A stretch of 64,000 nucleotides of DNA from a virus (lineage: Duplodnaviria; Heunggongvirae; Uroviricota; Caudoviricetes): IMG/VR virus record IMGVR_UViG_3300021399_000141; one strand, 5' to 3'. The notes below the pieces were generated by a model that saw only the letters and a list, made by a program, of their open reading frames with translations, ran no database searches and had not been told where the DNA came from. This document shows, one piece after another, positions 5,216-57,540 of the stretch (position 1 is its first letter; each line of letters starts with the position of its first letter). Position numbers and translations under genes: made by a program.

Positions 5216-5286
5216 ATCCGTTATGTTCTTATATGTATAAATATATAAAAAAAGAGGAAACATTTAGTGATTTCCTCCTGTAAAAT

Positions 5287-5724
5287 TTATTTTCCTAACA
5301 TATATTTTATGCTAGGATCGACTACTAATTTGAGTTCGGTCATCAGATTTCTATTCATGAGTGCTCCTGTTTTCTTGAATGATCGATCTGCAACAGCTAC
5401 GTAGGTGTTTTTTAGTACCCTGTTTCCTATTTTGATGTAGGCACACTTGACAACTGGGCGCGTCACTTTCTCTTTACCAACCTTAGGTTTGATTGTGCCT
5501 TCTACATTCAGGCATTCTTCGTAAAGACCATCTGAAGTGAAAATAGCCTGCACCATAAACTTGACACTATTATTATTTTCTTCTATTATAGAAGCGCCAA
5601 TAGTAGGATATATACCAGAGTTTCCTGTATCCATCGTCGCAGACAGCTGATACCATCGCTCACCATCAAAAGAAATGGTCACAATTTCTTCATAGCCTAC
5701 TCTTTTCTTGAATATTGGTCTCAT
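5287..5724 (-). CDS. hypothetical protein
   Basis: ORF track 145 aa. Confidence 0.5.
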   Translation of the reverse strand: MRPIFKKRVGYEEIVTISFDGERWYQLSATMDTGNSGIYPTIGASIIEENNNSVKFMVQAIFTSDGLYEECLNVEGTIKPKVGKEKVTRPVVKCAYIKIGNRVLKNTYVAVADRSFKKTGALMNRNLMTELKLVVDPSIKYMLGK

Positions 5725-6061
5725 CTTTGATAAATTTATTTAGATAATGTTTTTGAATATACGGTCCCCATAGTGGCCATAACGAAGTGAAGTTATCTGG
5801 GTCATCACCACAATCTTTCAACCACAGTTGGTCATTGGAATGGTTGAAAAACTTGGCGAACAATATCTCAAGATTTTTACTACCAATCAGTATCCATAAG
5901 ATAGGAGTTATGGTGATGATGCCGCAGGTCTCCAGTGCCAAGAAAGATATCAGGGTTGGTATATATATAACCCAGTTAAGAACGGTTGCTACTACATACA
6001 GTAGCCGTTTACATAATCCTTTGAAATAATTCATATCTGTTCGTCTGTTTGTTTTAGCCAA
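5690..6061 (-). CDS. membrane protein
   Basis: ORF track 123 aa with hydrophobic helices. Confidence 0.4.
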   Translation of the reverse strand: MAKTNRRTDMNYFKGLCKRLLYVVATVLNWVIYIPTLISFLALETCGIITITPILWILIGSKNLEILFAKFFNHSNDQLWLKDCGDDPDNFTSLWPLWGPYIQKHYLNKFIKDETNIQEKSRL

Positions 6062-6312
6062 TGTTTGATGATTTCCTGCTCTACTCTACGTTTGATGGAT
6101 TTTTCGTCTTCCATGTACATCAATCCGCAAGTAGAGTCGCGATAGACCATTTCAAATATCTTATCTCCTATACTACCGTATTTGTCGTACTCACGGACTG
6201 ATATAAGTCCCCAACGTAGTCTGAAGTAGGCAACAGGTTTACCAAACAAGTAAATGTCGTACTGTTCTGGGCATTCGCTGCATGTGCAACGCCAATCAAA
6301 TTCTAGTTTCAT
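6031..6312 (-). CDS. hypothetical Cys-containing protein
   Basis: ORF track 93 aa. Confidence 0.4.
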   Translation of the reverse strand: MKLEFDWRCTCSECPEQYDIYLFGKPVAYFRLRWGLISVREYDKYGSIGDKIFEMVYRDSTCGLMYMEDEKSIKRRVEQEIIKHWLKQTDEQI

Positions 6313-6354
6313 ACGTATCGAATTACCTTAAAATAAATGTCTTCGGGTGATGCA

Positions 6355-6951
6355 TCATTCCCACCATCCTCCTATACCAGTACCATCAAACACAGACGTC
6401 CACATGTCGTACGACTCGTGTGGATTAGGCTCTCGTCCGTGTGTCTTTTTGAAATCATCTTTTAACGGTTGGAGCAATGCATCAACGGTATCTCCGTCCT
6501 GTCCTCGCATCAACCGGAAGATCTTTTTGAAATGTTCGTTCACCAGGCCGTCATACAGCTTGTCGTACTCTTCATTGCTGAGTTTCTTTTGTTCTTTAAT
6601 CTTCCAAGCCTCATCCTCGACGTCTCGTTTGAGCTCACTGATAAGAGACTGAATAGCCAAGTACTTCAGATTAGCAGAACGATCTTCCTCATACCCGTTT
6701 TTGATCTGGTCAGCGAGTTGCCCTAACATCATGATATGAGCGTCATTGATATAGGAGTAGTCCCAAGAACGCCATTCCCAAAGGGTTTTCCAGAATACTT
6801 TAAGGTTGTGGAAGAACCACCAGACGTTGTAGTAGGTGTCTCTGATGCCAAACCTCCATGCATCATATTTGAGAAACTCCCATACTGTCCTGCAGATACG
6901 TCTACACCTCAGATATATTTTTCGTGTTCTTTTCATTTTTGTTCTGCTCAC
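6355..6951 (-). CDS. hypothetical protein
   Basis: ORF track 198 aa. Confidence 0.5.
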   Translation of the reverse strand: MSRTKMKRTRKIYLRCRRICRTVWEFLKYDAWRFGIRDTYYNVWWFFHNLKVFWKTLWEWRSWDYSYINDAHIMMLGQLADQIKNGYEEDRSANLKYLAIQSLISELKRDVEDEAWKIKEQKKLSNEEYDKLYDGLVNEHFKKIFRLMRGQDGDTVDALLQPLKDDFKKTHGREPNPHESYDMWTSVFDGTGIGGWWE

Positions 6952-7451: not shown

Positions 7452-7652
7452 TTATACTTTATTGTAATCGTTGGCGTTTTCGTATACTGTTCTTGCAATA
7501 ATCTTACTCTGAACGAATCTTGAGTCGTACTCCTCCAAATATCTATCCAGTACCTTGAGTGCCTGACTCCTTTGCGTGAATAAGGGTTGTACCAATTCTA
7601 TGATGGTGCCTCTTTCATCCTTGACTAAAATTGTTAACTGATATATTTCCAT
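7452..7652 (-). CDS. hypothetical protein
   Basis: ORF track 66 aa. Confidence 0.4.
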   Translation of the reverse strand: MEIYQLTILVKDERGTIIELVQPLFTQRSQALKVLDRYLEEYDSRFVQSKIIARTVYENANDYNKV

Positions 7653-7657
7653 ATGGG

Positions 7658-8145
7658 TTACAATTTTTCTCCGATAGCCCCTAATATCTTGGTGCCTTCA
7701 TCAGTCTCGGAATAGAAATCCGGATAACGTGAAGCGGTAATACGTATGCCTTTCTCTCCAATAGGACGTTCTCGGCTTGCATCTCTCTTGATACATTCCT
7801 CAATAGGAGTCAGGATGTTTTTGTAGAAAATCTGAACTTCCTTTGAAGTGGCACTTGCTATCATATACAAGATAGTCTTGATCGTTTTGGGGTTCAGGTT
7901 CATGTTATCAATCACTACGCTAATGTCGTGTTCGAACGCCGTGATCAACATAGTGTTCATCACTCGATTCAAGAACGGAATCTTCTCCCGGTCCGGAACC
8001 CAGTAGCAACTCTCACCCCCCATCATTACTCGGAGATCATCCCAGTTGATGCGTATGCGGTGTTCTGGATCTTCTTTTACCCAGTTCTTTGCCCAAGTTG
8101 ATTTGCCGGATCCTTGCAAACCCCGTACTATAACTACTTGTATCA
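7658..8145 (-). CDS. P-loop polynucleotide-kinase-like protein
   Basis: Walker A GLQGSGKSTWA resembling T4 Pnk kinase domain; start moved to MIQVVIVRG (ORF track 7658..8260). Confidence 0.55.
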
Positions 8146-8210
8146 TATGCTTGTTTTGTTTATATAAATATATATGAAAAAAGGTCCTAAAATTTAGGAC
8201 CCTTTCGCAA

Positions 8211-8621
8211 CTAAATAAGGATTTTTTTTTGTGGTAACAAATCCGGATTCTCATACACATTACCTATCACCTCGAAAGTATGGTTGTGTTGATAGAACAT
8301 CTCAACCAGTGAGGCTTTGGAATCATGGACAATGTCATGACTGAAACATAGATAGAACTGACATAGATATTCATGCCATACTATTTGTGCTATAACATTA
8401 CCATCGACAGATACAATGTCCCCTTCGAACATTTGTCTGTCGTTCTTGTCATGGAGTCCGGTACCTATTCCTATTGTGCGAGGATCAACTAGTCGTCCAT
8501 TCACCCAGGTCATATTGCCGTGTATCAGGAGGTTGCCGTATTGCCACGTACCATCATCAGACATGACTTGATCATCACACCAAGCCCTACTGATGACCAT
8601 TCCTCTAAAAACGTATCTCAT
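8211..8621 (-). CDS. hypothetical protein
   Basis: ORF track 136 aa. Confidence 0.45.
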   Translation of the reverse strand: MRYVFRGMVISRAWCDDQVMSDDGTWQYGNLLIHGNMTWVNGRLVDPRTIGIGTGLHDKNDRQMFEGDIVSVDGNVIAQIVWHEYLCQFYLCFSHDIVHDSKASLVEMFYQHNHTFEVIGNVYENPDLLPQKKILI

Positions 8622-8622
8622 A

Positions 8623-8789
8623 TCACTTAATATTGATTACGAGTGCTACACCGAGTGTATTCCAAAAACGTTTCTGCAGTTCTTTTACTGTCGTACATTT
8701 GAATTCGGACATGTACTCTTGAAGTTCTTCATTGGTGGTGATCACTGCTTCACCCTTAGAATCTACGCGAACAGGTTTCATATTTTAAT
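8623..8789 (-). CDS. small hypothetical protein (55 aa, not in ORF track)
   Basis: hand translation MKPVRVDSKGEAVITTNEELQEYMSEFK...; promoter motif at 8838-8875 directly upstream. Confidence 0.3.
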
Positions 8790-8951
8790 ATATATATAGA
8801 TGTATATCTTTCTTCCATATTGTTTATTTCTTTTGTTGTATATATATCTGAAAAACCCATGAATATTTTAGTGATAAACCAATAAAAAATACCCTATTCA
8901 CACGAACCGGGTATTTGTATATAACAAAAATAAAATATAAGATTCAAATGA

Positions 8952-9248
8952 TTATATACTCAACAACTGTTGGAACTCTTTGGCATCCTGAGCCCATATC
9001 TCTATCAGGGTTTGCCCATTGACCTTGAGACACATTCCGCAAGTCTCTTCTTGGGTCCCGTCGGCTCCTTCTACGTATCCATTCCCAAGATACACAAATT
9101 CTATTTTGTTCTCCTGGATAACCTGATGCTGTTGTCCGTTGACTACTACCAACTGTTTGCGTTGTTGGGTCTTGATAAACGAATTACTTTTGCATTCGAA
9201 TCCCTGTTTCAACAGATAATTCTTGATGCTTTCGAAACTTTTGTTCAT
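8952..9248 (-). CDS. hypothetical protein
   Basis: ORF track 98 aa. Confidence 0.45.
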   Translation of the reverse strand: MNKSFESIKNYLLKQGFECKSNSFIKTQQRKQLVVVNGQQHQVIQENKIEFVYLGNGYVEGADGTQEETCGMCLKVNGQTLIEIWAQDAKEFQQLLSI

Positions 9249-9334
9249 TGTTTAATTGTGTTAGATAATAATATATAAGAAGTAGTTGACATATTTATAT
9301 TTCACCCCTTATTATTTTATTGAAATTTTGATAT

Positions 9335-12300
9335 ATGGCTAAAAGCAAAGAAGTACATGGCGGTGTAGTGAATCTGGGTGACATCATCAATCAGATCACA
9401 TCTACTACAGAGGATTTGGTAGGCATTATCGACGCGATCAATGCCAACTGCGACTATGCTTCTATAAGCAAAAAAGCAGACCAGGCTAGCAAAAACGTGC
9501 ATAATCTGATGCATGTTATGACTGACTTGTTCACATATATTCAAGAATCACTCACGAACTTAAAAGAGTTGAATGATGGAGACTCTGCGAAAAACCTACA
9601 ATCTATCCTAGTCGGATATGATCCTTCTGTTGATATTACAAAAACAGATTTTTCCAAAGTAGGCATACTTCAATTGTTGACAGGATTGTTTAAGATGATG
9701 GAAAACATCATCAATATGGAAATTCCTGGTCAAATTTCATTGATATGGAAGATGACTATGCTGAAGTTGGATGTGGACATTCTTGCTATAGGTATACGTG
9801 AATTGACATTGTCTGTTGGTGCATTGGCGATGATTCTAAATTCTGGTATAGGAAAAATGATTTTGACCAGCGTAAATAATATGATCAACCTGGCTATAGC
9901 ACTGGCAACCAAACTACAGGATTTTGAGGCTATAGATGCGCCGAATAACATCTCCATGCTTTACAAAACTCTTGTGCTATATCTAGACTTAAAGATACTT
10001 TCAGAATTTATAAACAAGCTCAATGTCTATGCACAAGAAAATATTCAGCTTGCCATTATAAAACAATTCATCATATCTACATCAACCGTTATTTCCGCCC
10101 TCAGATTGTTCACCGAATCAATCAATCAGTTCATGGACTTGGATGTGTCATCTGCCATGTCAGTTCGTAAAAGGATGAGAAATTTGACTCGGATAACACG
10201 AATACTGATATCAGGGTTGAATGAAATAGCAAAAACTATCAGTATAAATTTCAACCAGAAACGTCGCAACAAGCTGATGATGTCTATTTTTAATATGACG
10301 GTGATGTTCGCTCTTTTGAAAATAGCCATAGAGCAGATAGCCATAACTGTCGCAGTCATATCTGTAATCGGTGTGTTGGTATTGTTGCTGTTCATCCCAT
10401 TCATCTTAGGATTGGCATCTATAGTAGTAGCATTCGGAATCATGGTTAAAATGATTAAGTTGATGGCGAAACTAGCGAGAAGAGCAGCATTCCAAGCTAT
10501 AAAGGTAGTGGTGCCTATGATAGTAGTATGCGGTGTGCTCATGATTATAGCGGCCACACTAATGATGATAGTATTAGCGGGCAAGGTATTGCAAGATAAT
10601 CTATTAAGTACTCTCATCACTATAGGATTCATGGGATTGATAGTATTAGCTATTGCCGGATTTATGGCACTAGCATCTTTTGTTGCACCATTTGTGTTGG
10701 TAGGTGTTATAGCCATGGCTGCGATCACCATAGGTGTCTTGGCCTTGTTAGCACTTGCTACTATGTTGATAATGATTGTATGGATTGCAAAATATTTGGA
10801 TGCGGATGCTGTTATAATTTCAGTTGATAAGATCATAAGCACTGCCGAACAAGTGATTCAAACCGTTCTCAACGCTGATTTCAAACGTACCAAAGAAGAT
10901 ACTGATAGAAGTTGGATCAGAACCATACTCGGAAAAGTACTAGGTCAAGAAGCACTAGGTATATTCGATCTGATTATTAAGGTCACCATACTATTCTTGA
11001 CAGTGTTTGTAGTGATCACTTTGATAGTATTAGTGGGGGTCATCATAGGACTAACCAAGTTGTACGAGGCTAACAAATCGATCCTAGACAACGCCCCTGC
11101 GGTAGTAGTCTCTATCGTCGAAGGCGCATATCACATCATAGACACAGTCATAAACTATAAACCCAATGCCGAAATGGGTGAAGAGGATGATAAGTTCTCC
11201 AAGTTGATATCGTATGTCTCTGGTTCGGACTTTGTGACTATATTTAAACTACTCACCAAAGTAGTAGTTGTGGCACTAACGGTCGTTGTATTGGCTATGC
11301 TAGCACTACTGGTGAAGGAGATGAAATGGATGGTCGAGGCTACAGATGGTTTGGACTTCAATATGATAGAAACTCGTGTTGGCGACATCATGAAAGCTGT
11401 TGGTAACATCATAGGCATCTTATCAGAGCCTGCTGAAGAACCGAACGGTAAACCACGTAAGGGATTGTCCAAATTACTTCAGACCATAGGTCTAGGTAAT
11501 CTAGCGGATGTCGTGGATCTATTGTGTGCTTTCGTACGAATTGGTATATCTGTAGCAGCTCTGTCTGTTGTACTAGCCGCTGCAAACATCATGAAGTCTT
11601 GCTGGGAGACTTATAATGAGATGGGTGGTGAGAAGATCGGAACTAACGCTGCAGCTATGACCAATGGATTGCTCCGAGGGTTAGACTCCATCATAGTAAC
11701 CCTCAACGATTCCAAGGTTAAGTTGGGTGATGTGGATGACAGCCTAGAATCATTGCAAGCCACCATTCCATTGTTCACAACCATCATGAACATCACCAAG
11801 CTCATGAAAAAGGCTGTAAACGAGCTGCAGAGTATCGATGATGCTAACCTACAGAAGATAGATATTACCTGCAAGAAGATATCCGAATCGTTCAACCAAC
11901 TACTGGATGGTGAAGAAGGTCTCCTACCGTTTGTGGTAGAGCATTCACAATCCTATAGTGCCGTGGTCAAGGATACTGATAGGTTGATCAACCGAATCAA
12001 CGGTTTGAATATCAGCAAGTTGGATTCACTTGCTAAGATGTTCGGTCATGCTGCTGCATTCGCTCAGGCAATTGATGGTAACTTCGACAGACTTGCTGAT
12101 GTCATCAACGAGAAACTCGCACCCATCCTGGAAGGTCTCCAAAAGACGATTGATAATGCTGATCAACACATCAAAGAATATACCGAGAAGCAAAACCAAG
12201 CACCTGCTCAGGTTGCACAAACTACTGTAGTCGCACCAGTTGCCTCAGGTCCTGTTCCTCCTGGAGGTGCTAATCCTACACTACAAGGTGCCGGTCAAAA

Positions 12301-14554: not shown

Positions 14555-15073
14555 TTAGAATGGTTCTTCCCATCCCATTGCGAATGATCTGAACATGAGA
14601 TTCAACTGTTCATCGTCCTGACGACATGTTAGTCTGATAACATCCCCTATTGTCTTTTCGTGTTTGACACTGACTGACGTCTTCAAATCCTTGAATACAA
14701 CCAGATATAGTGAGGTGTTCTCGGTGACGGAGGTCTTGTGCTCTTTGTAAGCCTTTTTGAATATATCACGTATATACTCAAATCTGCTCGACTTATGTTT
14801 AGCGGTAAATGAATAAACTCGAGCACCTGATACACCATATGCATTACCGCTGGGTTGACCGTATCTGTCTTCTCGTCTACCCCAGTCCTGTATCTTGGCA
14901 TGATACTTCAACTCCTTGAATACATCGCTGACAGGTTTGAGGATATTCATTATATCTTCATATTTAGCCAAGCCTTTGATGGCTTTGTCCTCCATGCTAA
15001 TATCTATATCATTATCTAATATGCTTTCGTACAGAGTCTTCATATATGTATATATAATAACAAAGTCTTGCAA
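14555..15073 (-). CDS. hypothetical protein
   Basis: ORF track 172 aa. Confidence 0.5.
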   Translation of the reverse strand: MQDFVIIYTYMKTLYESILDNDIDISMEDKAIKGLAKYEDIMNILKPVSDVFKELKYHAKIQDWGRREDRYGQPSGNAYGVSGARVYSFTAKHKSSRFEYIRDIFKKAYKEHKTSVTENTSLYLVVFKDLKTSVSVKHEKTIGDVIRLTCRQDDEQLNLMFRSFAMGWEEPF

Positions 15074-15085
15074 GCTTTTGAGATT

Positions 15086-15112
15086 GCATTAAAAAAGGAG
15101 ACCTACTCGGTC
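15086..15112 (-). terminator. rho-independent terminator
   Basis: ggagacctactcggtctcc hairpin; T-run on minus strand after gene 15143..15904. Confidence 0.5.
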
Positions 15113-15904: not shown

Positions 15905-15971
15905 GTATTAAATTTATTTGCCTATATAATAAAAAAAAAAGAGACTTTTTACAGCCTTCTTAAAAATGTAG

Positions 15972-16305: not shown

Positions 16306-16539
16306 GTATAACATGTGGTAATCATCCACTAACGGTAAGTTTCGTACCGATGAAACTTTTACCGGAGCTTCATAAAACCTTGCTCTGTCTCGTAGAACTA
16401 CGGTATTCCATTTTGATTATCGGTGGAACTTCTCTATGACCGATATTCGTATTAGGTTTTAAGGTGTCATCCGACTTATGGTACCTAATTTAAGGAAACT
16501 GCGCCCTTCGTCTTTTCAGACTTCGCGAGTTTGTATTGA

Positions 16540-16742
16540 AACCTCTCCAACCACTCCCTTCGTGACATAGGTCAATATCCAAGGGCTGTTACTATCCTAG
16601 AGACCAATTCAAGCAACCGATATGTGAATAGTTGGATTTGTATTGAAACTTCTCCAGCTATACCCTTCGTGACATGGGTCAATATCCAAGGGCTGTTACT
16701 ATCCTAGAGACCAATTCAAGTAACCGGTGAGTGAATAGTTGG
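16540..16742. repeat. two tandem copies of an approximately 100-bp repeat
   Basis: copies 16540-16644 and 16646-16742 about 90 percent identical; each ends in gtgaatagttgg, also found at the adjacent tRNA-like gene. Confidence 0.7.
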
Positions 16743-16797
16743 GCTCGAACCAACGACATACCTTCTTTGGTGCTCTACCATCTGAGCTATATTCACT
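16731..16797 (-). ncRNA. tRNA-like gene lacking a canonical anticodon arm
   Basis: perfect acceptor GTGAATA/TATTCAC, D-arm GCTC-AGATGGTA-GAGC, T-arm GTTGG-TTCGAGC-CCAAC, but only 17 nt between D and T arms. Confidence 0.4.
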
Positions 16798-17157: not shown

Positions 17158-17164
17158 ATTTATT

Positions 17165-17210
17165 GTTCTTCTATATAATATATAAGAAAGAATGTCAAAA
17201 TTTTAGTGGG
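17165..17210 (-). promoter_or_regulatory. phage promoter motif CACTAAAATTTTGACA-N-TTATATATTATATAG upstream of tRNA-Ser
   Basis: member of the roughly 20-copy bipartite motif family; 30 nt upstream of tRNA 5-prime end. Confidence 0.5.
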
Positions 17211-17610: not shown

Positions 17611-17614
17611 AAAA

Positions 17615-17636
17615 AGCAACCGGCGAAGGTTGCTCT
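17615..17636 (-). terminator. hairpin plus T-run immediately upstream of tRNA-Thr
   Basis: gcaaccggcgaaggttgc stem followed by TTTTT on minus strand. Confidence 0.4.
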
Positions 17637-18487
17637 ATGTCATCTGCCTGAGAACTTAGGCTTTGGTGATATCATTGCGATAGGGTTGGACCTATCTGTT
17701 CACACTCTGTATTTCTACAGCGTAGATACCATGCACATCAGTTTTGAAAAACTGCCAAACTCTTACTCAACATCGTCGTAAATTTCCTTTCTGTACCACC
17801 TACTTGCGGATTCGAAGGGTGCCCCCTCCTCGGTCGATACTTACTTGTACTCTTTTGTGATTTTCCTTGCGAGAATCTCACATCCTCGTATTGCAGAGGA
17901 ACAAGTGCATTTTAGATGTCAAGTGTCGCACACTTTTGCTGACCTATATTAAACTTTACTGATTCATTATCGTTGTCAGTAGTAGGGATCGAACCTACAG
18001 TCTAGTAACCATTTTTAAGAGATGTGGTGCGACCCAACGCATTCGTACCTTTTGGATACGACCCACGTAAACACCTCTCTGTCCTTCGTGCTTCCTACAG
18101 CACTATTAACTGTCCGTTTCGTTCAAATCATTTCTGATGTTAAACTAGTCCTTCCGTGCAGCAGCAATTGATTAGGAGTTCTTTCACCGCTACCAACTTA
18201 AACCTTTATTGGGTTTTTATCCCTCAAGTCAGGAGTTTCACCCGACTCACTCGTACTTCAGTCTCACCATTTGGCATTGACGCTGATCCCTTTTGCGGAT
18301 TCTCCCATACGAGTGATGTTCTAGTTCTTTTCCGTGGACAGGTTCTTTTATCAACCTGCGCTCTAACTGTGTTACTGGGTTAGGGCTTTATAGTATTACT
18401 ACTTTATCCTTAACAGCTCCGAAAGCGAACTGGAGACCTTCCGCGGACACTTCCGCTAGTCTAACAAGGTGGTTTATTTCCTTGTTC

Positions 18488-18524
18488 AATTATAATATAT
18501 AGAAATGATCAAAAATTTTAGACC
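18488..18524 (-). promoter_or_regulatory. phage promoter motif variant (TCTAAAATTTTTGATCA ... TATATATTATAAT)
   Basis: heads an ORF-free roughly 850-nt minus-strand region. Confidence 0.4.
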
Positions 18525-18548
18525 TGGTGTATTTTTTTTTTGATTTTT

Positions 18549-20325: not shown

Positions 20326-20756
20326 TGTTTTAGTTGGTTTTGGTATATCAACGCCAATATTTTGTTTTGATATTCGACTTTGAAGATCTGTTCTACAAAG
20401 TCTGCGAGATCGTTTGCTGCATTGATGACCTCTTGCGTCCCATAGGAATGATGATATTCCCAGGCGCGATCTACAATTTGAACGCAGCTTCCGTAACTCA
20501 AATCCTCATGATTAGAACATATCGTTGCCGCCAAATTGTCTCTGAACTTGCCTTCCTCTTGATGACGTTTGTTACGTTCTTGCAGTATAATGCGCTCTTC
20601 GGCTTGTCTGATCGCTTCGGCTACTTTGGCTTCTTCTTTACGATGTGCTTCGCGAATAGCATGTAACTCATCCAGATCGTGGATGTCGTTCAATTTTGAA
20701 ATGTCGTTATTTTGCATTTTTCTTATAGTTTTCAAGTAAACGAATGATGTCTTCAC
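20322..20756 (-). CDS. hypothetical protein
   Basis: ORF track 144 aa. Confidence 0.45.
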   Translation of the reverse strand: MKTSFVYLKTIRKMQNNDISKLNDIHDLDELHAIREAHRKEEAKVAEAIRQAEERIILQERNKRHQEEGKFRDNLAATICSNHEDLSYGSCVQIVDRAWEYHHSYGTQEVINAANDLADFVEQIFKVEYQNKILALIYQNQLKQ

Positions 20757-21066: not shown

Positions 21067-21079
21067 ATATCTATATTGT

Positions 21080-21118
21080 TTTGTATATATAAATATATGA
21101 AAATAAGAAAAATATTTA
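21080..21118 (-). promoter_or_regulatory. phage promoter motif variant (CATTAAATATT ... TATATTTATATATAC)
   Basis: between tRNA-Arg and gene 20707..21066. Confidence 0.4.
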
Positions 21119-21139
21119 ATGAAAAAATAATGAGAAATG

Positions 21140-22600: not shown

Positions 22601-22625
22601 CGATCTCATGATTGATATTGAATGT

Positions 22626-22670
22626 TCTTCTATAATAATATATAAAAAACATTCTCTGATTTTTAGTGGA
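22626..22670 (-). promoter_or_regulatory. phage promoter motif (CCACTAAAAATCAGAG ... TTATATATTATTATAG)
   Basis: CACTAAA to TTATATAT spacing 23 nt, as in other copies. Confidence 0.5.
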
Positions 22671-27595: not shown

Positions 27596-27871
27596 GTTGA
27601 TAACCCAACTCCTAAAGACTATTGCTAGTCTAACGCTCGTTGCGTCAAAGCGTTTGTGTCTTATCTGACTATCCTTCACAGGTCATCAGATGTTATATAA
27701 ATAGTAATCTCCTTCGGGCATCATTTACAACGTGATATAGTATAGGGTCTTAAAACCTTGTTGACATAGATGCTATCGTTCGTCTCGTTATAATGGAGAT
27801 TCTATAAATGTTTCTTTTTTGCTATTCCCAATATGTCAAAGATCGTTTCGTATTAGAACTCTGTTTTGTTC

Positions 27872-27913
27872 TTCTACAATAATATATAAGAAACTTTTTA
27901 TAAATTTTAGTGA
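27872..27913 (-). promoter_or_regulatory. phage promoter motif (GTCACTAAAATTTATAAAAAG ... TTATATATTATTGTAG)
   Basis: spacing 23; heads an approximately 290-nt leader preceding tRNA-Pro. Confidence 0.5.
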
Positions 27914-28035: not shown

Positions 28036-28266
28036 AAATAAAAAAGCCCCAATCATTAGATTGCGGCTTGTATCTTGGTAGTTAGTTAAGGTTACGTGTA
28101 TATATCGATGTGACTTACAAGCCGCAGTATATTAGAGAGCACATAGATACCAGCCCAAGAAATTTGGACGTGCATCATGTTGTTTCTTAATATTGCAGGG
28201 TTGTAATCGTGTCATATCAATTCTATAATAAATAGGTCGTTCTAAATTTTAACTAATATATAAGAA

Positions 28267-28545
28267 TCAGACCAGAAATTTAAGGAGCAGTTTACCTTTT
28301 TTAGTAGAAAACATGTTTATTATCTTTAACATCTTGATGTGTTCGTTCTCTTCAGCATCTTCTCCGTATATTATAAGATACAGGTTATCTATATCTTGAG
28401 CCCACATCTGAGCCAAAGATTTCCAAGCACCCAATTTTATCCGGTCTTGACGCAAATTCTGATTTTCTTCTCGCAGTTTGTCCAGTTCTTTTTGAAGGGC
28501 AACTACGTCCATCTCGTTCTCGTCTATTATGCTCATATCTACCAT
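28267..28545 (-). CDS. small coiled-coil protein
   Basis: ORF track 92 aa. Confidence 0.4.
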   Translation of the reverse strand: MVDMSIIDENEMDVVALQKELDKLREENQNLRQDRIKLGAWKSLAQMWAQDIDNLYLIIYGEDAEENEHIKMLKIINMFSTKKGKLLLKFLV

Positions 28546-30140: not shown

Positions 30141-30440
30141 TTAAACCTCCTCAATATAGATTATTGTATATGACCGGGACATATCCATTGGATCTGCTGC
30201 ATCATGATAATCCGCCCACACTTTATACTGTTTGTCATCTTCGATTTTCTTTTCAATACTTTCATTAGGATAATTCCAGGTTTCTATATCATGATATACA
30301 TTTCCGACATCATGTGTGTGCATGCTCCATCCATAGAAAATGCCTACATAATAAGCTCCCCTTCTCAAATCTTCCATTGTTACCTCAGTCCAGCCGTATG
30401 TATGTAACTGGTGCGGGCTTTTCATAATTACAGTTTTCAT
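30141..30440 (-). CDS. hypothetical protein
   Basis: ORF track 99 aa. Confidence 0.45.
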   Translation of the reverse strand: MKTVIMKSPHQLHTYGWTEVTMEDLRRGAYYVGIFYGWSMHTHDVGNVYHDIETWNYPNESIEKKIEDDKQYKVWADYHDAADPMDMSRSYTIIYIEEV

Positions 30441-30504
30441 AGTTAAATATATAAAAAGGATCTAGGTTATTTACCTAGACCCTTTCTTTTTGTGAATCGA
30501 CATA

Positions 30505-32497: not shown

Positions 32498-32564
32498 AAC
32501 GGTGTGTTTTTATAATTTTAATATATATAACAGTAGAGTCTTCTTTAGACGTTACTGTGATAAA

Positions 32565-34464: not shown

Positions 34465-34480
34465 ATTATATTATCCTTTA

Positions 34481-34528
34481 TGTATATATATCTGAAACTA
34501 CTGTCGAATATTTAGTGATTTAGTGAAA
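34481..34528 (-). promoter_or_regulatory. phage promoter motif with duplicated CACTAAAT box
   Basis: TTTCACTAAATCACTAAATATTCGACAG ... AGATATATATAC upstream of the ligase start. Confidence 0.45.
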
Positions 34529-35052: not shown

Positions 35053-35181
35053 ATATTATTTCTATTATGAATATATATAAGAAAAAACGCCGAAATCTTT
35101 AATGAAAACCCTTGGAAATTTTCCAAGGGTCTTCAAGACTTCGTGATAAAATCCCGACGTAAAAAATAGTGAATCCTGCGA

Positions 35182-37957: not shown

Positions 37958-38003
37958 TTTTATATGTATAAATATATGAAAATAGAATCAAAATTTTAGT
38001 GAT
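37958..38003 (-). promoter_or_regulatory. phage promoter motif (AATCACTAAAATTTTGATTC ... TATATTTATACAT)
   Basis: motif family member. Confidence 0.45.
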
Positions 38004-40054: not shown

Positions 40055-40084
40055 GTTTTAATATATTGCTTTTTCGGTATTGTT

Positions 40085-41006: not shown

Positions 41007-41039
41007 ATCTTCTAATGTTATATTGTTCTTTTATGTATA

Positions 41040-41195
41040 TATAAGAAAAAAAAGAGGAGATCTTTAATGAAATCCCAAAGACTTTCAGGACTTTGTTAAT
41101 GAAATTCCGTGGGAATTTATGACTGCGTTAATGAAATCCCAAAGACTTTCAGGACTTTGTTAGTGATTTCCTCTGATTTTCTTTATTTTTTTTTG
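41040..41195. repeat. intergenic array of approximately 32-bp hairpin-containing units (TTAATGAAAT-hairpin-CAGGACTTTG)
   Basis: unit ttaatgaaatcccaaagactttcaggactttg occurs twice with a variant between; related units at 45858-45925 and 35069-35150. Confidence 0.6.
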
Positions 41196-41196
41196 G

Positions 41197-43042: not shown

Positions 43043-43051
43043 ATATTATTC

Positions 43052-43120
43052 TTTTATGTATATATATAAGAAAAAAGAGGAAATCTTTAATGCATTGCAT
43101 TAAAGATTTCCTCCATATTT
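43052..43120 (-). promoter_or_regulatory. terminator hairpin plus phage promoter motif (CATTAAAG ... TTATATATATACAT)
   Basis: 18-bp perfect inverted repeat gaggaaatctttaatgca/tgcattaaagatttcctc; on the minus strand followed by T-run and TATA element abutting the ATG. Confidence 0.55.
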
Positions 43121-43133
43121 TTAGATAGTATTT

Positions 43134-43946: not shown

Positions 43947-43958
43947 AGTATAAAATCG

Positions 43959-45614: not shown

Positions 45615-45821
45615 TTAGAGTTTCACATAATGAATCATTCCGTTGTCAAGCGTCACCCGAAGGACTTCATCCTTACTTCCAATAAGCTTACCGTCGTCAT
45701 AATAGGCGTTTGTAGGAGTCTGGATTCCTAAGACTCTGCGTGTGGTTTTTACAGTAGACCACAGATATTTGTCACCTGGTTTCAGTGGTGCCGCCTTATA
45801 ATTACTTATTCTTTTTCTCAT
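45615..45821 (-). CDS. hypothetical small protein
   Basis: ORF track 68 aa; promoter motif abuts start. Confidence 0.4.
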   Translation of the reverse strand: MRKRISNYKAAPLKPGDKYLWSTVKTTRRVLGIQTPTNAYYDDGKLIGSKDEVLRVTLDNGMIHYVKL

Positions 45822-46041
45822 ATGTATATATATAAGAAAAAAGAGAAAATATTTAATGAAATCTCAAAGGATTTCAAGACTTTGTTAATGAAAATCAAAG
45901 ATTTTCAAGACTTCGTAAGTGAATCAACAAAAATAGAATAGGTCATCTTCCCGATCAAGTGCGTCTTCAAAATCCACGTTGCGTGGTCTGATCTCATCGT
46001 CGAAGTACTCCTCTGGAAATACGTTCGGGATGTCGACCATG

Positions 46042-46446: not shown

Positions 46447-46680
46447 ATATATAAATGTATTTATGATATTTTCGAATCATTTCCCCAAACATCCCAGCCC
46501 TCGTAATTATCGCGTGCAAAGAGTTCTATGCGTTTTCTGTTGCCGCACAGTTCAACGATAGAATCTCTTATTATATCCGGTTTTTTGGAGTGTTCTTGTC
46601 TTGGGTATTCTATAAAAGAATTGATATTGTGTTTCTGTACTAACTTATGTGCATCTTTTCCTTTTGTGGCTATCAGACAT
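46447..46680 (-). pseudogene. MT-A70-like adenine methyltransferase C-terminal fragment, no start codon
   Basis: frame-2 translation ...EYPRQEHSKKPDIIRDSIVELCGNRKRIELFARDNYEGWDVWGNDSKIS* matches the C-terminal block of MT-A70/Dam-family methyltransferases; no in-frame ATG and no upstream catalytic half. Confidence 0.4.
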
Positions 46681-46748
46681 ATAAATATATAAAAAACGGA
46701 GGTAATCTTTAATGAAATACCTCCTGAAATATATTGGAAATAGCTTTG

Positions 46749-48145: not shown

Positions 48146-48887
48146 TCAAGGATGCAATGAAGTCTTGTCCTAATGTGTCGACTATAATAATATGCGGGTG
48201 TGCATCAGGAATTATCGCTTTCGCCTGAGTATGTCCTACAATCTGTTTACCATTCGGTAGTCCGTTATGACGTGGTTTAACCAATGTCGTAGGGCGGATC
48301 CATGCCGGTGACTGTTCTGGTGAGGTGCCATATACGTCTCCCCAACTGGTAGCGCCGTATCCGAACTGGAACTTGCCTAGACCGGTTTCCCAGGGGCGCT
48401 CTCCCCAATCAGCAGTACCATCGGAACGCTCTGTATATCCGTCCCAGAAGATACTATTGACGTGTGCTGCAATCTCATAGGCGTTGCCCGGTGTTCCTGC
48501 GTATTCGGTCTTTTCCAACCATTCTTTGGTTACACCTGCGTGTGATACCAAGATGTCCTTACTGATTGCGAATGCCATGCCACCGAACATATACATGCTA
48601 TCGAGGAACAGTTTCTCGATCTCTTTTTCGTGAGACCAGTCCTTACGAGACCCACCCGGTTCGTGATGCAGATAGTGGAGATCGTGATTACCTAGCAGCA
48701 ATATCGTGTCGGTATGTGTGCGAGCGAACCAAAGGATGTTTTCAAAGTTTTCCTTGAGTTTTTCGAACGGTATGCACTCGTATGGATCGAAGTAGTCACC
48801 TACAAAGATATTTACACAATCTTCCCGCACCAGGCGCTCCCAATGAGTACGTCCGTGGGTGTCTCCTATGATGTTATACTTTTTCAT
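48093..48887 (-). CDS. calcineurin-like metallophosphoesterase
   Basis: GDTHG, GDYFD and GNHD motifs. Confidence 0.6.
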   Translation of the reverse strand: MKKYNIIGDTHGRTHWERLVREDCVNIFVGDYFDPYECIPFEKLKENFENILWFARTHTDTILLLGNHDLHYLHHEPGGSRKDWSHEKEIEKLFLDSMYMFGGMAFAISKDILVSHAGVTKEWLEKTEYAGTPGNAYEIAAHVNSIFWDGYTERSDGTADWGERPWETGLGKFQFGYGATSWGDVYGTSPEQSPAWIRPTTLVKPRHNGLPNGKQIVGHTQAKAIIPDAHPHIIIVDTLGQDFIASLIVEHEDDKDVFKVNQIQ

Positions 48888-48948
48888 ATGTATGTAATAT
48901 ATAAAAAAAGAAGGAGGTTTTTAACCCTCCTTCTAATTATAGATTTTC

Positions 48949-49404
48949 TCAAATGAGCGACTTTATGTCTGCTGTGAACACATTTGGGTCAGCTGGAGGC
49001 GTGTCACTTATCATAGACATTTCTGTACACAACGCTGTTTCGAATGTTTCTTTAAATGATTCTTTGTTCAGTTCCGACATTGTGTTTTTGCGTTTATCGT
49101 AAGGCTTGTACACCGTTACACCTTGTTCTGATATTTTCAGTGCAATCTCACCCATTATGAATTGATGTTGTAAAACATCGAAGGACTCACTGTATGAGAC
49201 ACTTGCCTCTTTGATCATATCAGAAATTGCTATTGGAAATTCGGATGTCTTTTTGTATTCATTGTAAGTGTACCCCGAACTATACCAATCATAGTTACAT
49301 TCCCGTTTTGTACCTGTGCGACTAGGTTGCTCAAAGTGTGTCTTCAATAGATAATGCCAATCGCAGCCCCGGTGTATACTAATGGTAATCCAAAGGGGGC
49401 TCAT
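48949..49404 (-). CDS. hypothetical protein
   Basis: ORF track 151 aa. Confidence 0.45.
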   Translation of the reverse strand: MSPLWITISIHRGCDWHYLLKTHFEQPSRTGTKRECNYDWYSSGYTYNEYKKTSEFPIAISDMIKEASVSYSESFDVLQHQFIMGEIALKISEQGVTVYKPYDKRKNTMSELNKESFKETFETALCTEMSMISDTPPADPNVFTADIKSLI

Positions 49405-49405
49405 A

Positions 49406-49750
49406 TCAACCCTCCTTTGTTACCGGTTTCTCATCCTTGAAGAACTCGTTGAACGTGCCTTCTGCGATCTTCAACTGGTCCTCAGCGAGCTTCAGTTCCC
49501 AACGAGTGCGCTGCAGATCCTGTGCCCATTTGTTGGGGTCCCAGTTCTTCGTGCCAACCTGGAGTGAGTCGGTGGAGTCCGGGGCGAAGTCTGTCAGGTT
49601 ATCTACCTTGAGCTTCAGTTCGCTGACCTTGTTGCGAAGAGTGTTGACTACCGTCTGCTGTGCGATCTCTGCCTGGGTTGCAAGCGCACCGGCGCGTTTC
49701 TTGAGAGTGTTAGAGGTGTTGTCTGAAATGAGCTGTTGAAACTTGTTCAT
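49406..49750 (-). CDS. hypothetical coiled-coil protein
   Basis: ORF track 114 aa. Confidence 0.45.
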   Translation of the reverse strand: MNKFQQLISDNTSNTLKKRAGALATQAEIAQQTVVNTLRNKVSELKLKVDNLTDFAPDSTDSLQVGTKNWDPNKWAQDLQRTRWELKLAEDQLKIAEGTFNEFFKDEKPVTKEG

Positions 49751-49796
49751 AATCTTAATGTGTTATGTGGTTAATACTTTTGTTGATTCTTGTTGA

Positions 49797-50066: not shown

Positions 50067-50273
50067 ATTCTTGTTCCTTTCTTAAATGTTGTTCTTAATT
50101 ATTGTTCTTATGTATATATATAAGAAAGAAATCAAAATATTTAGTGATTACGCGCAAAAAAATTAAAAATAATATAATTTATCATCTCACAATAGTTATC
50201 GCGTTAAATCAAAGAAAATCGCGCAATAAAGCAAAATAAATGGAGTTACCATTCAGCAACTCCATTCGTTTCA

Positions 50274-51008: not shown

Positions 51009-51926
51009 TTATTTGTATTTTTCTTTTTCTTGTTTTAGCAAAGTATGTACTTGACGCGCCAGAAAACGCATGTCTGGGTGTGCTGCCTTATCATCTCTCA
51101 AATAGATGAAGTGATTCCAGTCTTTTTCAAACGCGGTATAAACCACCTCTGTATGTGTGTCCAACGGAAGAACACGGCGTGCTTGTTGGGGTTTCCATCC
51201 TAGACGAATCAAATTCATATACGATGCCTCGCAGGCGATGTTGGCAAACATCCACCAGTCTATATCTGAAAATCTGGGTCCATATCCATCAGCAATAGCT
51301 GCACAATATCCGTCCAATTTGAGCGGAGCCAGTTCCTCATCCGGTGCGTCAAACAGATTAGTAGGAAGCACAATCTGTAACGAGTTGTCAAACCGGTCGT
51401 TGCTGTAGTTGCAGTATCGCGTACTCTGCTCGCTCGGTGAGAGGGTACGATGACGATTGGCTTCGCGGCTGACACCTATGTCACAAGAGAATCGGAAGGT
51501 ATATCGTTTCTCGTGTTTCTTGAATGGTTTGGTAAGATAGAGCAGATCACCCCAACGATGATTCTCTTCGATCACACGATAATTGGTGGTGATATAAGCG
51601 GTATAACCCACATGACTCTCATAAATATTGACATGTGAGTACTTGTTGTTTTTATAAAAGAGAACGATATTGTTGAGTCTGTTCATCTCATCTGATGAGA
51701 TGTTGTCTACAGGTACCTGAATGGTCAGATAAGCAGTACCGTGCTCCAAAGGACTCAGGTGGCGAGGTGTGTTAGACAACAGATGTGTCTTGATCCATTC
51801 ACGCGGATCGTCCACTTCCTTATCCACCTTATAACAGGTCTGAGCACATTTGACAATGTGTTTGAACATGGATGTCTGATCCGTCTCCGGAACCAACATC
51901 TCTACACTAGGAATTACTATTTGCAT
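51009..51926 (-). CDS. thyX: flavin-dependent thymidylate synthase
   Basis: ThyX signature REANRHRTLSPSEQSTRY (RHR...S...S.R). Confidence 0.65.
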   Translation of the reverse strand: MQIVIPSVEMLVPETDQTSMFKHIVKCAQTCYKVDKEVDDPREWIKTHLLSNTPRHLSPLEHGTAYLTIQVPVDNISSDEMNRLNNIVLFYKNNKYSHVNIYESHVGYTAYITTNYRVIEENHRWGDLLYLTKPFKKHEKRYTFRFSCDIGVSREANRHRTLSPSEQSTRYCNYSNDRFDNSLQIVLPTNLFDAPDEELAPLKLDGYCAAIADGYGPRFSDIDWWMFANIACEASYMNLIRLGWKPQQARRVLPLDTHTEVVYTAFEKDWNHFIYLRDDKAAHPDMRFLARQVHTLLKQEKEKYK

Positions 51927-51939
51927 ATATCAATATATT

Positions 51940-51975
51940 AAAAAGAACCTAAGTCTTTAGGACCTAGGTTCTTTT
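51940..51975. terminator. bidirectional hairpin terminator between nrdD and thyX
   Basis: aaaaagaacctaagtctttaggacctaggttctttt. Confidence 0.5.
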
Positions 51976-55133: not shown

Positions 55134-55171
55134 GATATAAATAATAAAACAAAAAGCCGTGCAGTGCACGA

Positions 55172-55696
55172 CTATTTCTTGTCATTTTTGATCATAGGTT
55201 TGATGAAGATATCGTATGTCATCCAGAAGAATAACAGACTTAATATAACGAAAAAGGTTGGATCTCCTATTGGGGCAGGCAGGTCTTTGTAGTATCGAGT
55301 AGGATTATTAGTTCCTGGACTGCCAGATCTCCAATCCCATAATGCCCACCCCCAATCTAATAATGATCTCCATTCACCCCACGAGTTTTCTTTTTTCCTA
55401 TACCAATTTCCGTTCCAGTAATAGTATTCGTAGTCAGCCTGCCACATGGGACTAGGACTTCCTGCAATACCTGATGGATTTATAGAATCCCCATCAGCAG
55501 TATACCCTTTCACCCTCCTTGACTGTCTCGGCCTCCCCGAATTAGTATTAAAACCATTTCCATATGGTGTGGTGTATCCTAATCGGTATTCTGAAGTAGG
55601 TATATTACTGCCCCTATCATAAACGCTGCTAGTACTGTTGAAAGTAGTTCCATAGATCAATTGTAAATTTAGTAATATCAGTAGTATTGTTCTCAT
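55172..55696 (-). CDS. secreted Gly/Tyr/Trp-rich protein
   Basis: signal peptide MRTILLILLNLQLIYG. Confidence 0.45.
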   Translation of the reverse strand: MRTILLILLNLQLIYGTTFNSTSSVYDRGSNIPTSEYRLGYTTPYGNGFNTNSGRPRQSRRVKGYTADGDSINPSGIAGSPSPMWQADYEYYYWNGNWYRKKENSWGEWRSLLDWGWALWDWRSGSPGTNNPTRYYKDLPAPIGDPTFFVILSLLFFWMTYDIFIKPMIKNDKK

Positions 55697-55758
55697 ATCT
55701 TAAATCATAAAAAGTCCCGAGCTGATAACCCAGGACTCTACATTTGTCGGATTGATCG

Positions 55759-57465
55759 TTACATCATACCTCCACCATCATCCGGGTTCTCCCCTCCAGC
55801 AAGGTTGAGTTCTTCAATCTCTTCTTGTTTCAACTTGGTGTTGAGTTTCAAATCAGCATCAGATAGTTTCAAGTACTTCTGTACCAAGAACTTAGATGAC
55901 CAGAACTTGATTTCATTACCATTTTGATCCATATCCACCATACCATCTTTCATGGTCTGGATGAAGTCAACACGTTTCTGCATCAGCTCCATCTCCATCA
56001 TCTCTTCGAAGAGGTTGTAAGAGTGGTACTGCAACGAGATAGCTTCGAGCACCTCTCTGTTGTCTTGCAGTTCAGGAATAGACAGCGCCAACTGCATCTG
56101 TAGTGGTTTGATCATGATTTGACTGAAGCGATTACGCAAACGAGTAACGAATCGTCCGAAATCAATCTCGGTACGCGCTACTGATGTGGCGTCGGATCCA
56201 AACCAAGTCTCTCCGTTGTCCTGTTCAAAACGACTCAAAGGAATTTTTGATATCTTGTATAACTGGTTCTTGAAGTAACGTAACTGGTCGTCATCGTTAA
56301 GGTTAGGTCCGTCCCCACCCAGTGTCTCGATATTTGGTGTACCTGAGTCGTTCTCTGGAAACCAGTACTCTTTGTTGAACGGGAGGTTCACTTGACCATT
56401 GATCTCCAATTCACCTGTATCAGGCATGAATTTGATGTCTTCCTTGTACTTGTTCATCGCGGACGATACTGTCTGCATACCGAGTGTGCGGTTCATACCC
56501 TTAACAGGTATGGTAAACTTCATCTTATAGGATGAGTTGGTAATGGTCCAGATCAACTGGGCTTGCTCGACGATACGATAGATATTGAACGGTCGGATCA
56601 GACGCTCCAGATACGACAAACGAGTCAGGCAATTGGTCTCTTGGTACGCTATATAGACGACTTGTGAATCGAGAAGAGTACGCTCTTTGCCATTCATACC
56701 CTTATATTGGATCCAGTACCATTTGTTGTTGTCGAACTTCTTGGTTAGTGTGGCTGGGTCCAAAGGAACGAGTCCGATGATGTTGGTTGGTTTCTCTAGA
56801 TTGTCGTAAACGATCTCCCAAGCCAGGATACCTTCCACGAGGAATCGTTTGAAATCATCCCAAGCATTGTATTTCCAGTTCAACATCTTATAGAAGCGGC
56901 GGAAGTTGGTATTGATAGTATTGGTGATTTTCTCCTGGACTTCTTTGGTGAACATATTGATCTCCTGAGCCTCGACAAAAGGTTCTGCAAAGTATACCAG
57001 TTCATTATCGTACACGATAGCTTCGTTAGTCATGGTATCCAGGATATCTTCCAGTTCCGGCTGCATAGCGAGCTTGCGGAGCGCGTCACGTTTCTGTGGA
57101 AAATCCTTACTGAAGAAATCCTTATCAGCGTTCTGTTTGACCTTCCAGTTGTTAGCCATCGATGTGAACAAGTCCTGGTTGATCAACTGTTGCTCTTTTG
57201 GAATGAAGTTCTTATCCGCTGGTATAGCGCGCATGTTGGCAATGACCTGTTCATCGTACGTCATACCCAGACGAGACATGTTTGAGAAAAACCGAGCGAT
57301 GACGCCTTTCTTCTTCTCTTGCTGGGTCTGCGCATATCGAGGCCTGAAGTTGGTCGTCTCCTTGAATCCGGGTATATTAGAAGGGTTCTGTAATTGACCC
57401 TCTCCGATTAGGATACTACCTCCTTCGTCTATTAGTTTTGAGGATATTGATGATTCTTGTTCCAT
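55759..57465 (-). CDS. putative portal protein
   Basis: 568 aa, no Walker motif; size and position next to lysis and structural genes; weak evidence. Confidence 0.35.
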   Translation of the reverse strand: MEQESSISSKLIDEGGSILIGEGQLQNPSNIPGFKETTNFRPRYAQTQQEKKKGVIARFFSNMSRLGMTYDEQVIANMRAIPADKNFIPKEQQLINQDLFTSMANNWKVKQNADKDFFSKDFPQKRDALRKLAMQPELEDILDTMTNEAIVYDNELVYFAEPFVEAQEINMFTKEVQEKITNTINTNFRRFYKMLNWKYNAWDDFKRFLVEGILAWEIVYDNLEKPTNIIGLVPLDPATLTKKFDNNKWYWIQYKGMNGKERTLLDSQVVYIAYQETNCLTRLSYLERLIRPFNIYRIVEQAQLIWTITNSSYKMKFTIPVKGMNRTLGMQTVSSAMNKYKEDIKFMPDTGELEINGQVNLPFNKEYWFPENDSGTPNIETLGGDGPNLNDDDQLRYFKNQLYKISKIPLSRFEQDNGETWFGSDATSVARTEIDFGRFVTRLRNRFSQIMIKPLQMQLALSIPELQDNREVLEAISLQYHSYNLFEEMMEMELMQKRVDFIQTMKDGMVDMDQNGNEIKFWSSKFLVQKYLKLSDADLKLNTKLKQEEIEELNLAGGENPDDGGGMM

Positions 57466-57540
57466 ATATACAGTTTATGTAAGTATATAATAATAGCCCA
57501 TCCTTGTGTTTGTTGAGATGGGCTATTAAAATTATTAAAA

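Follow-up and report, generated by a model that had tools for sequence, protein, structure and literature searches.

Putative sigma-70-like promoters with a non-host consensus, partly merged with terminators, in a T4-superfamily jumbo phage of the rumen

Which signal starts transcription in a phage whose intergenic spaces carry the same short motif again and again, and which polymerase or factor would read it? The question is raised by a 64,000-nucleotide stretch of DNA (the window) from the viral record IMGVR_UViG_3300021399_000141, in which nearly all genes lie on the minus strand. An earlier reading made from the letters of the window (the sequence-only reading) described about 20 intergenic copies of a bipartite motif, a box CAYTAAA followed at a fixed distance by a TTATATAT element, and proposed a transcription signal recognized by a phage-encoded polymerase or sigma factor. 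The computational follow-up presented here leads to a more specific account. The sites are very probably promoters. They would be sigma-70-family-like promoters of a T4-superfamily jumbo phage, read by the host core polymerase together with a phage-specified factor, and to this explanation as a whole we assign a probability of roughly 0.6.

The motif is real and strongly enriched. The pattern CAYTAAA-N16-TTATATAT, with up to two mismatches, has 11 matches where 0.73 are expected; nine of them lie on the minus strand and six are exact. The box alone is found 22 times in the minus sense and 8 times in the plus sense of the window. Copies are not equally frequent inside coding sequence, as 17 of the 22 minus-sense boxes are intergenic, although intergenic DNA makes up 17% of the window. 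TATATAT follows 22-27 nt past the box at about 15 of the 22 minus-sense copies and at none of the 8 plus-sense copies. An unsupervised expectation-maximization (EM) search of 69 intergenic segments recovered the motif de novo, with the consensus ...AAa.att....tttTTTTtaTaTATATAtacAtAaAAgAa. The EM weight matrix, at a threshold of at least 14 bits, gives 32 minus-sense hits against 0.27 in Markov shuffles, and nearly every one of these hits falls in an intergenic region shortly before a minus-strand gene. Most hits on the plus strand repeat these sites, which are near-palindromic. The signal is strand-specific, intergenic and located directly upstream of protein genes and tRNA clusters alike, as expected of the transcriptional signal that had been proposed.

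Several features of the original description are refined by this count. The sites comprise 16 with an exact or near-exact box, about seven with the yTAAA core alone at the same distance, and at least three without a box. Among the 20 positions first listed, 16 have an exact CAYTAAA or GTCTAAA. Only a degenerate yTAAA box is present near 8150, 28205, 32503 and 48890, and at 32503 the spacer is additionally 3 nt short. The portal site near 57466, which had been counted with the others, has neither box nor T-run and belongs to a second class, TTATTATAT; two classes, one box-bearing (class I) and one box-less (class II), had been merged into a single one. The distance from the C of the box to TTATATAT, described as a fixed 23 nt, has its mode at 23 and ranges from 22 to 26, and the extension of the box to CACTAAAATTTTGA, described as frequent, is exact at two sites only. 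A start 10-30 nt downstream holds for several protein genes, where the ATG lies 13-17 nt past the first T of TATATAT. It does not hold for the tRNA clusters, where one promoter is within 30 nt of a tRNA and the others are 180-290 nt away. Finally, the motif is clustered and not genome-wide: its density is high over 1-52 kb, where ORFans, tRNAs and nucleotide-metabolism genes lie, and over the next 10 kb, and it is absent from 52-64 kb, a block of portal, endolysin and leucine-rich-repeat (LRR) genes, and from the structural flank.

The order of elements is the box CAyTAAA (core yTAAA), a spacer of 16-17 bp whose last 5-8 bases are T-rich, TATATAT, and then commonly (A/T)TACATAA. The spacing from box to TATATAT has its mode at 17 bp, and the motif therefore has the geometry of a sigma-70-family promoter. 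The start codon of the metallophosphatase gene is fixed by the N-terminus MKKYNIIGDTHG, and this ATG lies 16 nt past the start of the presumed -10. Since the ATG is only 13-17 nt away at several sites, and since this one start is fixed, TATATAT is best taken as the -10 element, with some mRNAs nearly leaderless. TATATAT would occupy about -13 to -7, the CAyTAAA box would stand in a -35-like position, and initiation probably takes place within the ACATA behind TATATAT.

Conservation was assessed on 12 orthologous pairs of sites, shared by the window and an IMG/VR relative of about 80% identity. The -10 8-mer is identical at 95 of 96 positions (99%), the TAAA core at 92-100%, and the flanks and spacer at about 88-92%; at the Y of the box, one genome may have C where the other has T. 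In a strict motif search of IMG/VR, no contigs had multiple genuine copies except two related ones, of 197.5 kb and 131.5 kb, every other match being an isolated chance hit in AT-rich DNA, so that the motif is lineage-specific. In the portal neighbourhoods, mostly late genes, of relatives whose portals are 66-71% identical, the class I motif does not occur in its exact form, nor does it in a relative whose ligase is 47% identical; the TATA-rich core and ACATAA alone recur in those relatives. Compared with the 80%-identical relative, two small open reading frames (ORFs) and a PNK-like kinase gene are present in the window only, and two segments are replaced by unrelated DNA. The differing regions (32556-33157, 39408-41206, 43093-43957 and 48938-49789) all have intergenic breakpoints. 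Of 40 breakpoint ends, eight are close to a site. The P value is 0.0004 when all positions serve as the reference and 0.5 when the reference is restricted to intergenic positions, and recombination at the sites shows no excess over other intergenic positions.

The relation of the promoters to terminators is the second part of the architecture. Hairpins had been described at most copies; hairpins far more stable than shuffled controls (z < -2) are present at 12 of 26 sites. At seven sites (5247, 8176, 30453, 43068, 46691, 48903 and 51939) a GC-rich stem abuts the T-run at the end of a transcription unit, in the manner of an intrinsic terminator. The box, which had been placed in or next to the hairpin loop, lies in the loop at 5247 and 46691 and in the 3' arm at 43068; three further hairpins end at the box. 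Stem substitutions are compensated in the 80%-identical relative at 30453, 48903 and 51939, showing that the hairpins are real. Hairpins are lacking at ten strong sites, among them all the tRNA promoters, yet box and spacing are kept there. A role of the box as an RNA signal in terminator loops was considered and rejected, as hairpin-less sites keep the distance from box to TATATAT. The simplest reading of the overlap between hairpin and promoter is a packing constraint: if a terminator is confined to the 35 bp upstream of the -10, its T-run must be the spacer and its stem must cover the -35 region. Where an upstream unit needs ending, the GC-rich hairpin would overlie the -35 region with the T-run as spacer, and one stretch of about 60 bp would then end one transcript and start the next.

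Two promoters, at 41043 and 45834, are preceded by arrays of 31-32-nt units that lead straight into their -35-like box. The unit, CAYTAAC-AAAGTCYTGAAA-N-CTTTGRGATTT, combines a box with a small hairpin. The arrays could be products of slippage or an array of protein-binding sites. Further units of 31-32 nt are located at about 35104-35160, with a plus-strand copy at about 15050-15093.

The identity of the phage and of its host bears directly on which factor would read these sites. The source is a T4-superfamily jumbo phage that likely infects a rumen Bacteroidota host, judging from its proteins and its start codons. Its gp20-type portal matches Portal_T4 (Pfam, E = 1.5e-78), and the closest portals are those of an uncultured 462-kb phage (41% identity), Sphingomonas phage PAU, Tenacibaculum phage PTm1 and the Prevotella Lak megaphages. 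The 10-kb flanks encode a T4_baseplate domain protein, a tail-tube-like protein and RuvC, and a T4-type terminase is encoded in a relative. A megablast comparison with known phages gave no match. The same genome is also represented by a 207,057-bp contig, giving a genome of at least 207 kb, and is present in sheep rumen assemblies. Shine-Dalgarno sequences are found at 9% of the start codons of the window against 13% of random positions, and the context of minus-strand starts has A at -12/-13 at 0.64/0.60 and T at -1 at 0.66. The published signature of the Bacteroidota is the lack of a Shine-Dalgarno sequence together with A at -12/-13 (PMC6847099), and the host is assigned to this phylum because the start context matches it. 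A recognizing factor was sought with Pfam and PHROGs on about 90 proteins, and among precomputed Pfam hits, from the window, both 10-kb flanks and four further pieces of relatives; the roughly 105 kb searched correspond to about half of the genome of at least 207 kb.

T4-like phages carry composite terminator–promoter motifs, PeSL and PmSL, between ORFans in their hyperplastic regions (Arbiol et al. 2010, PMC2839356; Comeau et al. 2014, PMC4122927), and the best-surviving alternative follows from the former. The sites may be early promoters read by the host primary sigma factor, as PeSL cassettes are in T4-like coliphages and vibriophages, the consensus being the taste of an unusual host sigma. 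The position between small ORFans is typical early-gene territory, the 17-bp sigma-70 geometry with a stem-loop just upstream is PeSL-like (PMC4122927), and the first genes need some polymerase while no phage factor was found in the roughly 105 kb. Promoters of the Bacteroidota primary sigma and the sites have in common AT-rich upstream DNA, a T-rich tract near -18 and, at four sites, TTTG near -27. However, this sigma needs the nearly invariant T-12 A-11 T-8 T-7 T-6 G-5 (TAHHTTTG, the -7 element), and none of the sites has the TTTG of that element. The window contains seven intergenic sense-strand copies of TAHHTTTG, none at a motif site, so that the reported mismatch with the Bacteroidota consensus is confirmed. 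No full TTTG-N16-23-TAHHTTTG stands in promoter position in 154 kb of the phage and its relatives; the one full match there is inside the NrdD gene, on the non-coding strand. The reported mismatch with sigma-70 holds as well, E. coli-type promoters not being enriched (39 TTGACA/TATAAT-like sites against 47 expected). Additionally, within IMG/VR the exact motif does not extend beyond this phage lineage, and reading by the host primary sigma is unlikely.

Slightly less likely again is sigma appropriation of the T4 middle type, in which the host sigma would sit on the -10 and a MotA-like activator with an AsiA-like protein would act at CAyTAAA. As in T4 middle promoters, the place of the host -35 is taken by an upstream box specific to the phage. 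The two gene sets are alike too, since T4 middle genes comprise replication, nucleotide metabolism and tRNAs (PMC2988021) and the genes here include nucleotide metabolism, ligase, kinases and tRNAs. The tandem extra boxes at two promoters resemble the sites of a separate DNA-binding protein, and cassettes of Mot-box and stem-loop (PmSL) are known in phage nt-1. The box, however, is spaced 16-17 bp from the -10, with 17 bp as the usual value, and not 12 +/- 1 bp, and the -10 does not resemble that of the host, while an excellent host -10 is indispensable in T4 middle promoters; a strict MotA/AsiA mechanism is disfavoured for these two reasons. The Pfam and PHROGs scans of the window and flanks gave no match to MotA or AsiA.

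A third possibility, raised by the sequence-only reading itself, is that the sites are promoters of a phage-encoded RNA polymerase, single-subunit or multisubunit, and a long conserved stretch (about 45-50 nt including the start region) that is lineage-specific would suit such an enzyme. A pair of boxes with a 17-bp spacer is nevertheless what marks a sigma factor, the roughly 105 kb yielded no polymerase domain, and the portal, baseplate and terminase are of the T4 type. T4-superfamily jumbo phages, including Lak and PTm1, are reported to have no RNA polymerase and always to have sigma factors and gp33 (PMC7824862), and an RpoS-like sigma is known from a relative of PTm1 and PAU (PMC10537231). 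Because the group is reported to lack the polymerase and to encode sigma factors, a sigma or co-factor of the phage is a far more likely reader than a phage polymerase, which is improbable here. Of the earlier proposal, neither polymerase nor sigma was found in the roughly 105 kb, while the divergence from the host consensus on which it drew stands. In PTm1, no sigma factor is named in the annotation of the first 50 kb, and 10 candidate ORFs have no Pfam sigma domain.

Last and very improbable is the idea that the sites are no promoters at all and serve only as terminators, RNA-processing sites or recombination sites for gene shuffling, which draws on the genuine hairpin and T-run at about half of the sites and on several synteny breaks that coincide with sites, but at least ten strong hairpin-less sites retain box, spacing and TATATAT, the most conserved part is TATATAT, downstream of the T-run, and the breakpoints are no nearer to the motif than other intergenic positions (P = 0.5).

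We return to promoters read through the host core polymerase. The sequence is unlike the host -7 and -33 elements, so recognition is most likely by this polymerase with a phage-specified factor, and that the factor is specified by the phage seems reasonably probable. One candidate is a phage sigma that has regions 2 and 4, another a gp55-like sigma with a box-binding partner. A bolder version, which is tentative and rather doubtful, is that the phage bypasses the host primary sigma and expresses its pre-late genes, including the 36 tRNAs, through a phage-made two-part system. This would be either a full phage sigma or a "split sigma", made of a gp55-like reader of the -10 and a partner, gp33-like or other, with acquired CAyTAAA-specific binding. 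The 32-nt box arrays would act as a regulatory sink or enhancer for this partner.

Several observations weigh against the preferred explanation. No sigma factor, gp55, gp33, MotA, AsiA or RNA polymerase was found in the roughly 105 kb of the phage and its close relatives. Because the motif is rich in A and T and close to a palindrome, matrix scores on the opposite strand are inflated. Intergenic DNA is well conserved overall between the two relatives, and the conservation signal is modest for that reason. The two classes also overlap, as the site at 15931 has TTATTATAT together with a TAAA at class I distance.

The box-less sites are probably a class of late promoters, by analogy with other phages. 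Their motif, TTATTAT(A/T)T, has no box and no T-run and lies 15-30 nt upstream of genes; it precedes the portal gene, the tail-tube-like gene, the terminase gene, a baseplate-adjacent gene, a 779-aa gene and two window genes, with copies in the window at 15060, 15932 and 57493. This box-less relative of the same -10 would serve structural, late genes. Similar TATA-rich elements stand before late genes in the relatives with 66-71% portal identity and in LR756500.1, where the element is (G/T)ATATATAA. In PTm1 (1-50000), a hairpin or T-run followed by ATACATA is found upstream of many genes (23 sense against 5 antisense), and a second motif, TTGTTTAATACnATAGAAAT, precedes the SSB and RNR genes; ATACATA is also found behind TATATAT in the promoters of the window. 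A class II variant, TTATTATTT, is located upstream of 9335 (+).

The box-bearing class precedes ORFans, genes of nucleotide and nucleic-acid metabolism, and tRNA clusters. These genes would form a middle-type set, with their timing drawn by analogy only; because the two classes overlap, any assignment to early, middle or late has this same basis. Two long segments, 17611-18548 and 27596-27948, lie directly behind the strong promoters 18501 and 27888; they contain neither an ORF nor a tRNA nor a match to Rfam, and may represent novel non-coding RNAs or decayed tRNA genes. The Rfam scan returned tRNAs only. The individual sites and arrays are collected in Table 1.

Table 1. Putative promoters, terminator–promoter composites and box arrays of the window.
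Coordinates	Strand	Feature	Remark
1971..2014	-	class I promoter, CATTAAA	ATG 15 nt after -10 start
5227..5282	-	class I promoter, CACTAAA in terminator hairpin loop (GGAGGAAA/TTTCCTC)	
8156..8205	-	terminator hairpin + CATATAT, degenerate TCCTAAA	
8826..8873	-	class I promoter, CACTAAA, spacer +3	
9257..9300	-	TATATAT with poor box ATATAAA	before 98-aa ORF
15039..15082	-	class II, TTATTATATATACATA	ATG 16 nt after -10
15911..15954	-	class II-like, T-run + TTATTATAT, TAAA at class I distance	before 253-aa gene
17164..17208	-	class I promoter	tRNA-Ser 27 nt downstream
18481..18523	-	class I promoter, GTCTAAA	next 940 nt have neither ORF nor tRNA nor Rfam match
21079..21121	-	class I promoter	before operon of cREC_REC protein and polynucleotide kinase/phosphatase (PNKP)
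22624..22668	-	class I promoter within tRNA region	
27868..27912	-	class I promoter heading tRNA cluster	first tRNA 293 nt downstream
28242..28285	-	weaker site, CCTTAAA-N16-TATATAT	
30433..30482	-	terminator hairpin + TATATAT, degenerate AGGTAAA	compensatory changes in relative
32509..32550	-	weaker site, GTCTAAA inside hairpin, 14-nt spacer, TATATAT	
34470..34525	-	class I promoter, duplicated CACTAAA (34517, 34525), spacer +3	before DNA ligase
35059..35104	-	class I promoter, CATTAAA	strong hairpin ending at box
37958..38001	-	class I promoter, CACTAAAATTTTGA ... CATATAT	
41023..41069	-	class I promoter, CATTAAA, spacer +2	before 191-aa ORF
41064..41166	-	32-nt tandem repeat, 3.2 copies, each with CAYTAAC	last copy supplies promoter box
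43048..43114	-	class I promoter in 3' arm of 18-bp hairpin (43076-43114)	box 43086-43092; T-run is also the spacer; 417-aa gene downstream
45814..45858	-	class I promoter, CATTAAA	ATG 13 nt after first T of -10
45853..45913	-	31-nt tandem units, each with CAYTAAC box	array ends in promoter box at 45858
46671..46727	-	class I promoter, CATTAAA in hairpin loop (GGAGGTA/TACCTCC)	
48883..48934	-	terminator hairpin + T-run + TATATAT, degenerate GGTTAAA in loop	before metallophosphatase (MKKYNIIGDTHG)
50102..50146	-	class I promoter, CACTAAA-N17-TATATAT-ATACATAAGAACAA	no hairpin; before 89-aa ORF; ortholog kept in relative
51919..51972	-	terminator hairpin + T-run + AATATAT, degenerate TCCTAAA in stem	before ThyX
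57472..57532	-	class II, hairpin + TTATTATATAC-N3-ACATAA	27 nt before portal ATG

Among known systems, the PeSL/PmSL cassette is the closest analogue, one that the sequence-only reading had overlooked; the layout and the genomic setting match, and the host-like sequence does not. In both cases the bearer is a T4-superfamily phage, as supported here by the portal, the T4_baseplate protein and the terminase of the relative. In both, a short repeated intergenic stem-loop is combined with a -35/N17/-10 promoter right before the next start codon, and the copies are concentrated in variable regions rich in ORFans and rare in structural blocks. Degraded or duplicated copies of -35 and stem-loop, known for PeSLs, have their counterpart in the 31-32-nt arrays. 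The consensus here is unlike that of the host, whereas PeSLs are host sigma-70-like and PmSLs retain the host -10. The hairpin here overlaps box and spacer, whereas theirs lies upstream, and there is no Shine-Dalgarno part. A recombination role, such as has been proposed for PeSLs, is unsupported here beyond the breakpoints being intergenic.

The T4 late promoter, TATAAATA, is read by gp55 with gp33 and the gp45 clamp. It shares with the sites of the window an AT-rich 8-mer at about -13 to -6, the box-less form of which precedes structural genes, and TATA-rich elements are also found before late genes in relatives with 41-71% portal identity. The sequence TATATATA differs from TATAAATA by one base, which is a lead and not a test. 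The box-less TTATTATAT sites at the portal, tail tube and terminase fit the T4 late type, and the box-bearing majority does not: most copies here have a -35-like box and drive tRNAs and metabolic genes, and no gp55 or gp33 homologue was found in the roughly 105 kb read. Bacillus phage SPO1 encodes full sigma factors, gp28 and gp33/34, with their own promoters. The likeness to SPO1 is that the -35 and -10 are both phage-specific, with sigma-70 spacing and the host core polymerase as the presumed reader; the differences are another host phylum, another phage family and the hypothetical status of the sigma here. We know of no prior description of the motif consensus, no direct search for it having been made. 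We also know of no experimental transcription studies of the huge T4-related gut and rumen Bacteroidota phages (relatives of Lak, PTm1 and PAU), and a literature search for such studies came back empty.

The remaining content of the region is briefly described. Window proteins with a family match, besides the portal, include an anaerobic ribonucleotide reductase, ThyX, an ATP-dependent DNA ligase and PNKP, and two BspA-type LRR proteins were recognized; most of the remaining proteins, about 60, have no family match in the Pfam and PHROGs scans. The BspA-type LRR genes hold 69-nt tandem repeats (43661-43830 and 61751-61912), and at least three such genes are scattered through the region; these repeats probably account for the contig of one assembly stopping beside the portal. 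The 36 tRNA genes lie between 15971 and 28035. The tRNA region (16530-16742, 16730-16796, 26768-26841 and 27053-27125) includes a 107-nt tandem repeat, two tRNA-like Rfam matches that ARAGORN did not call, and one ARAGORN "tRNA-???" with a two-base anticodon. A 119-aa cREC_REC receiver-domain protein (20707-21066) is encoded by the first gene behind promoter 21099, in an operon shared with PNKP. In a relative (7483-10914 of its piece), the large subunit of the terminase is apparently interrupted, appearing as an N-terminal fragment, a homing-endonuclease-like ORF and a large fragment containing an intein.

The feature is thus real and well defined, and of a kind already familiar, namely phage-specific promoter classes and promoter–terminator cassettes in T4-like phages. 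It brings no new principle and, short of an unusual recognition system, is of moderate to low importance. A sharply defined non-host consensus predicts the operon structure of the phage and separates pre-late from late genes. It also predicts that the phage has a sigma or co-factor directed at a defined DNA target. As compact, insulated promoter–terminator parts, these sites might work in Bacteroidota only with the phage factor present.

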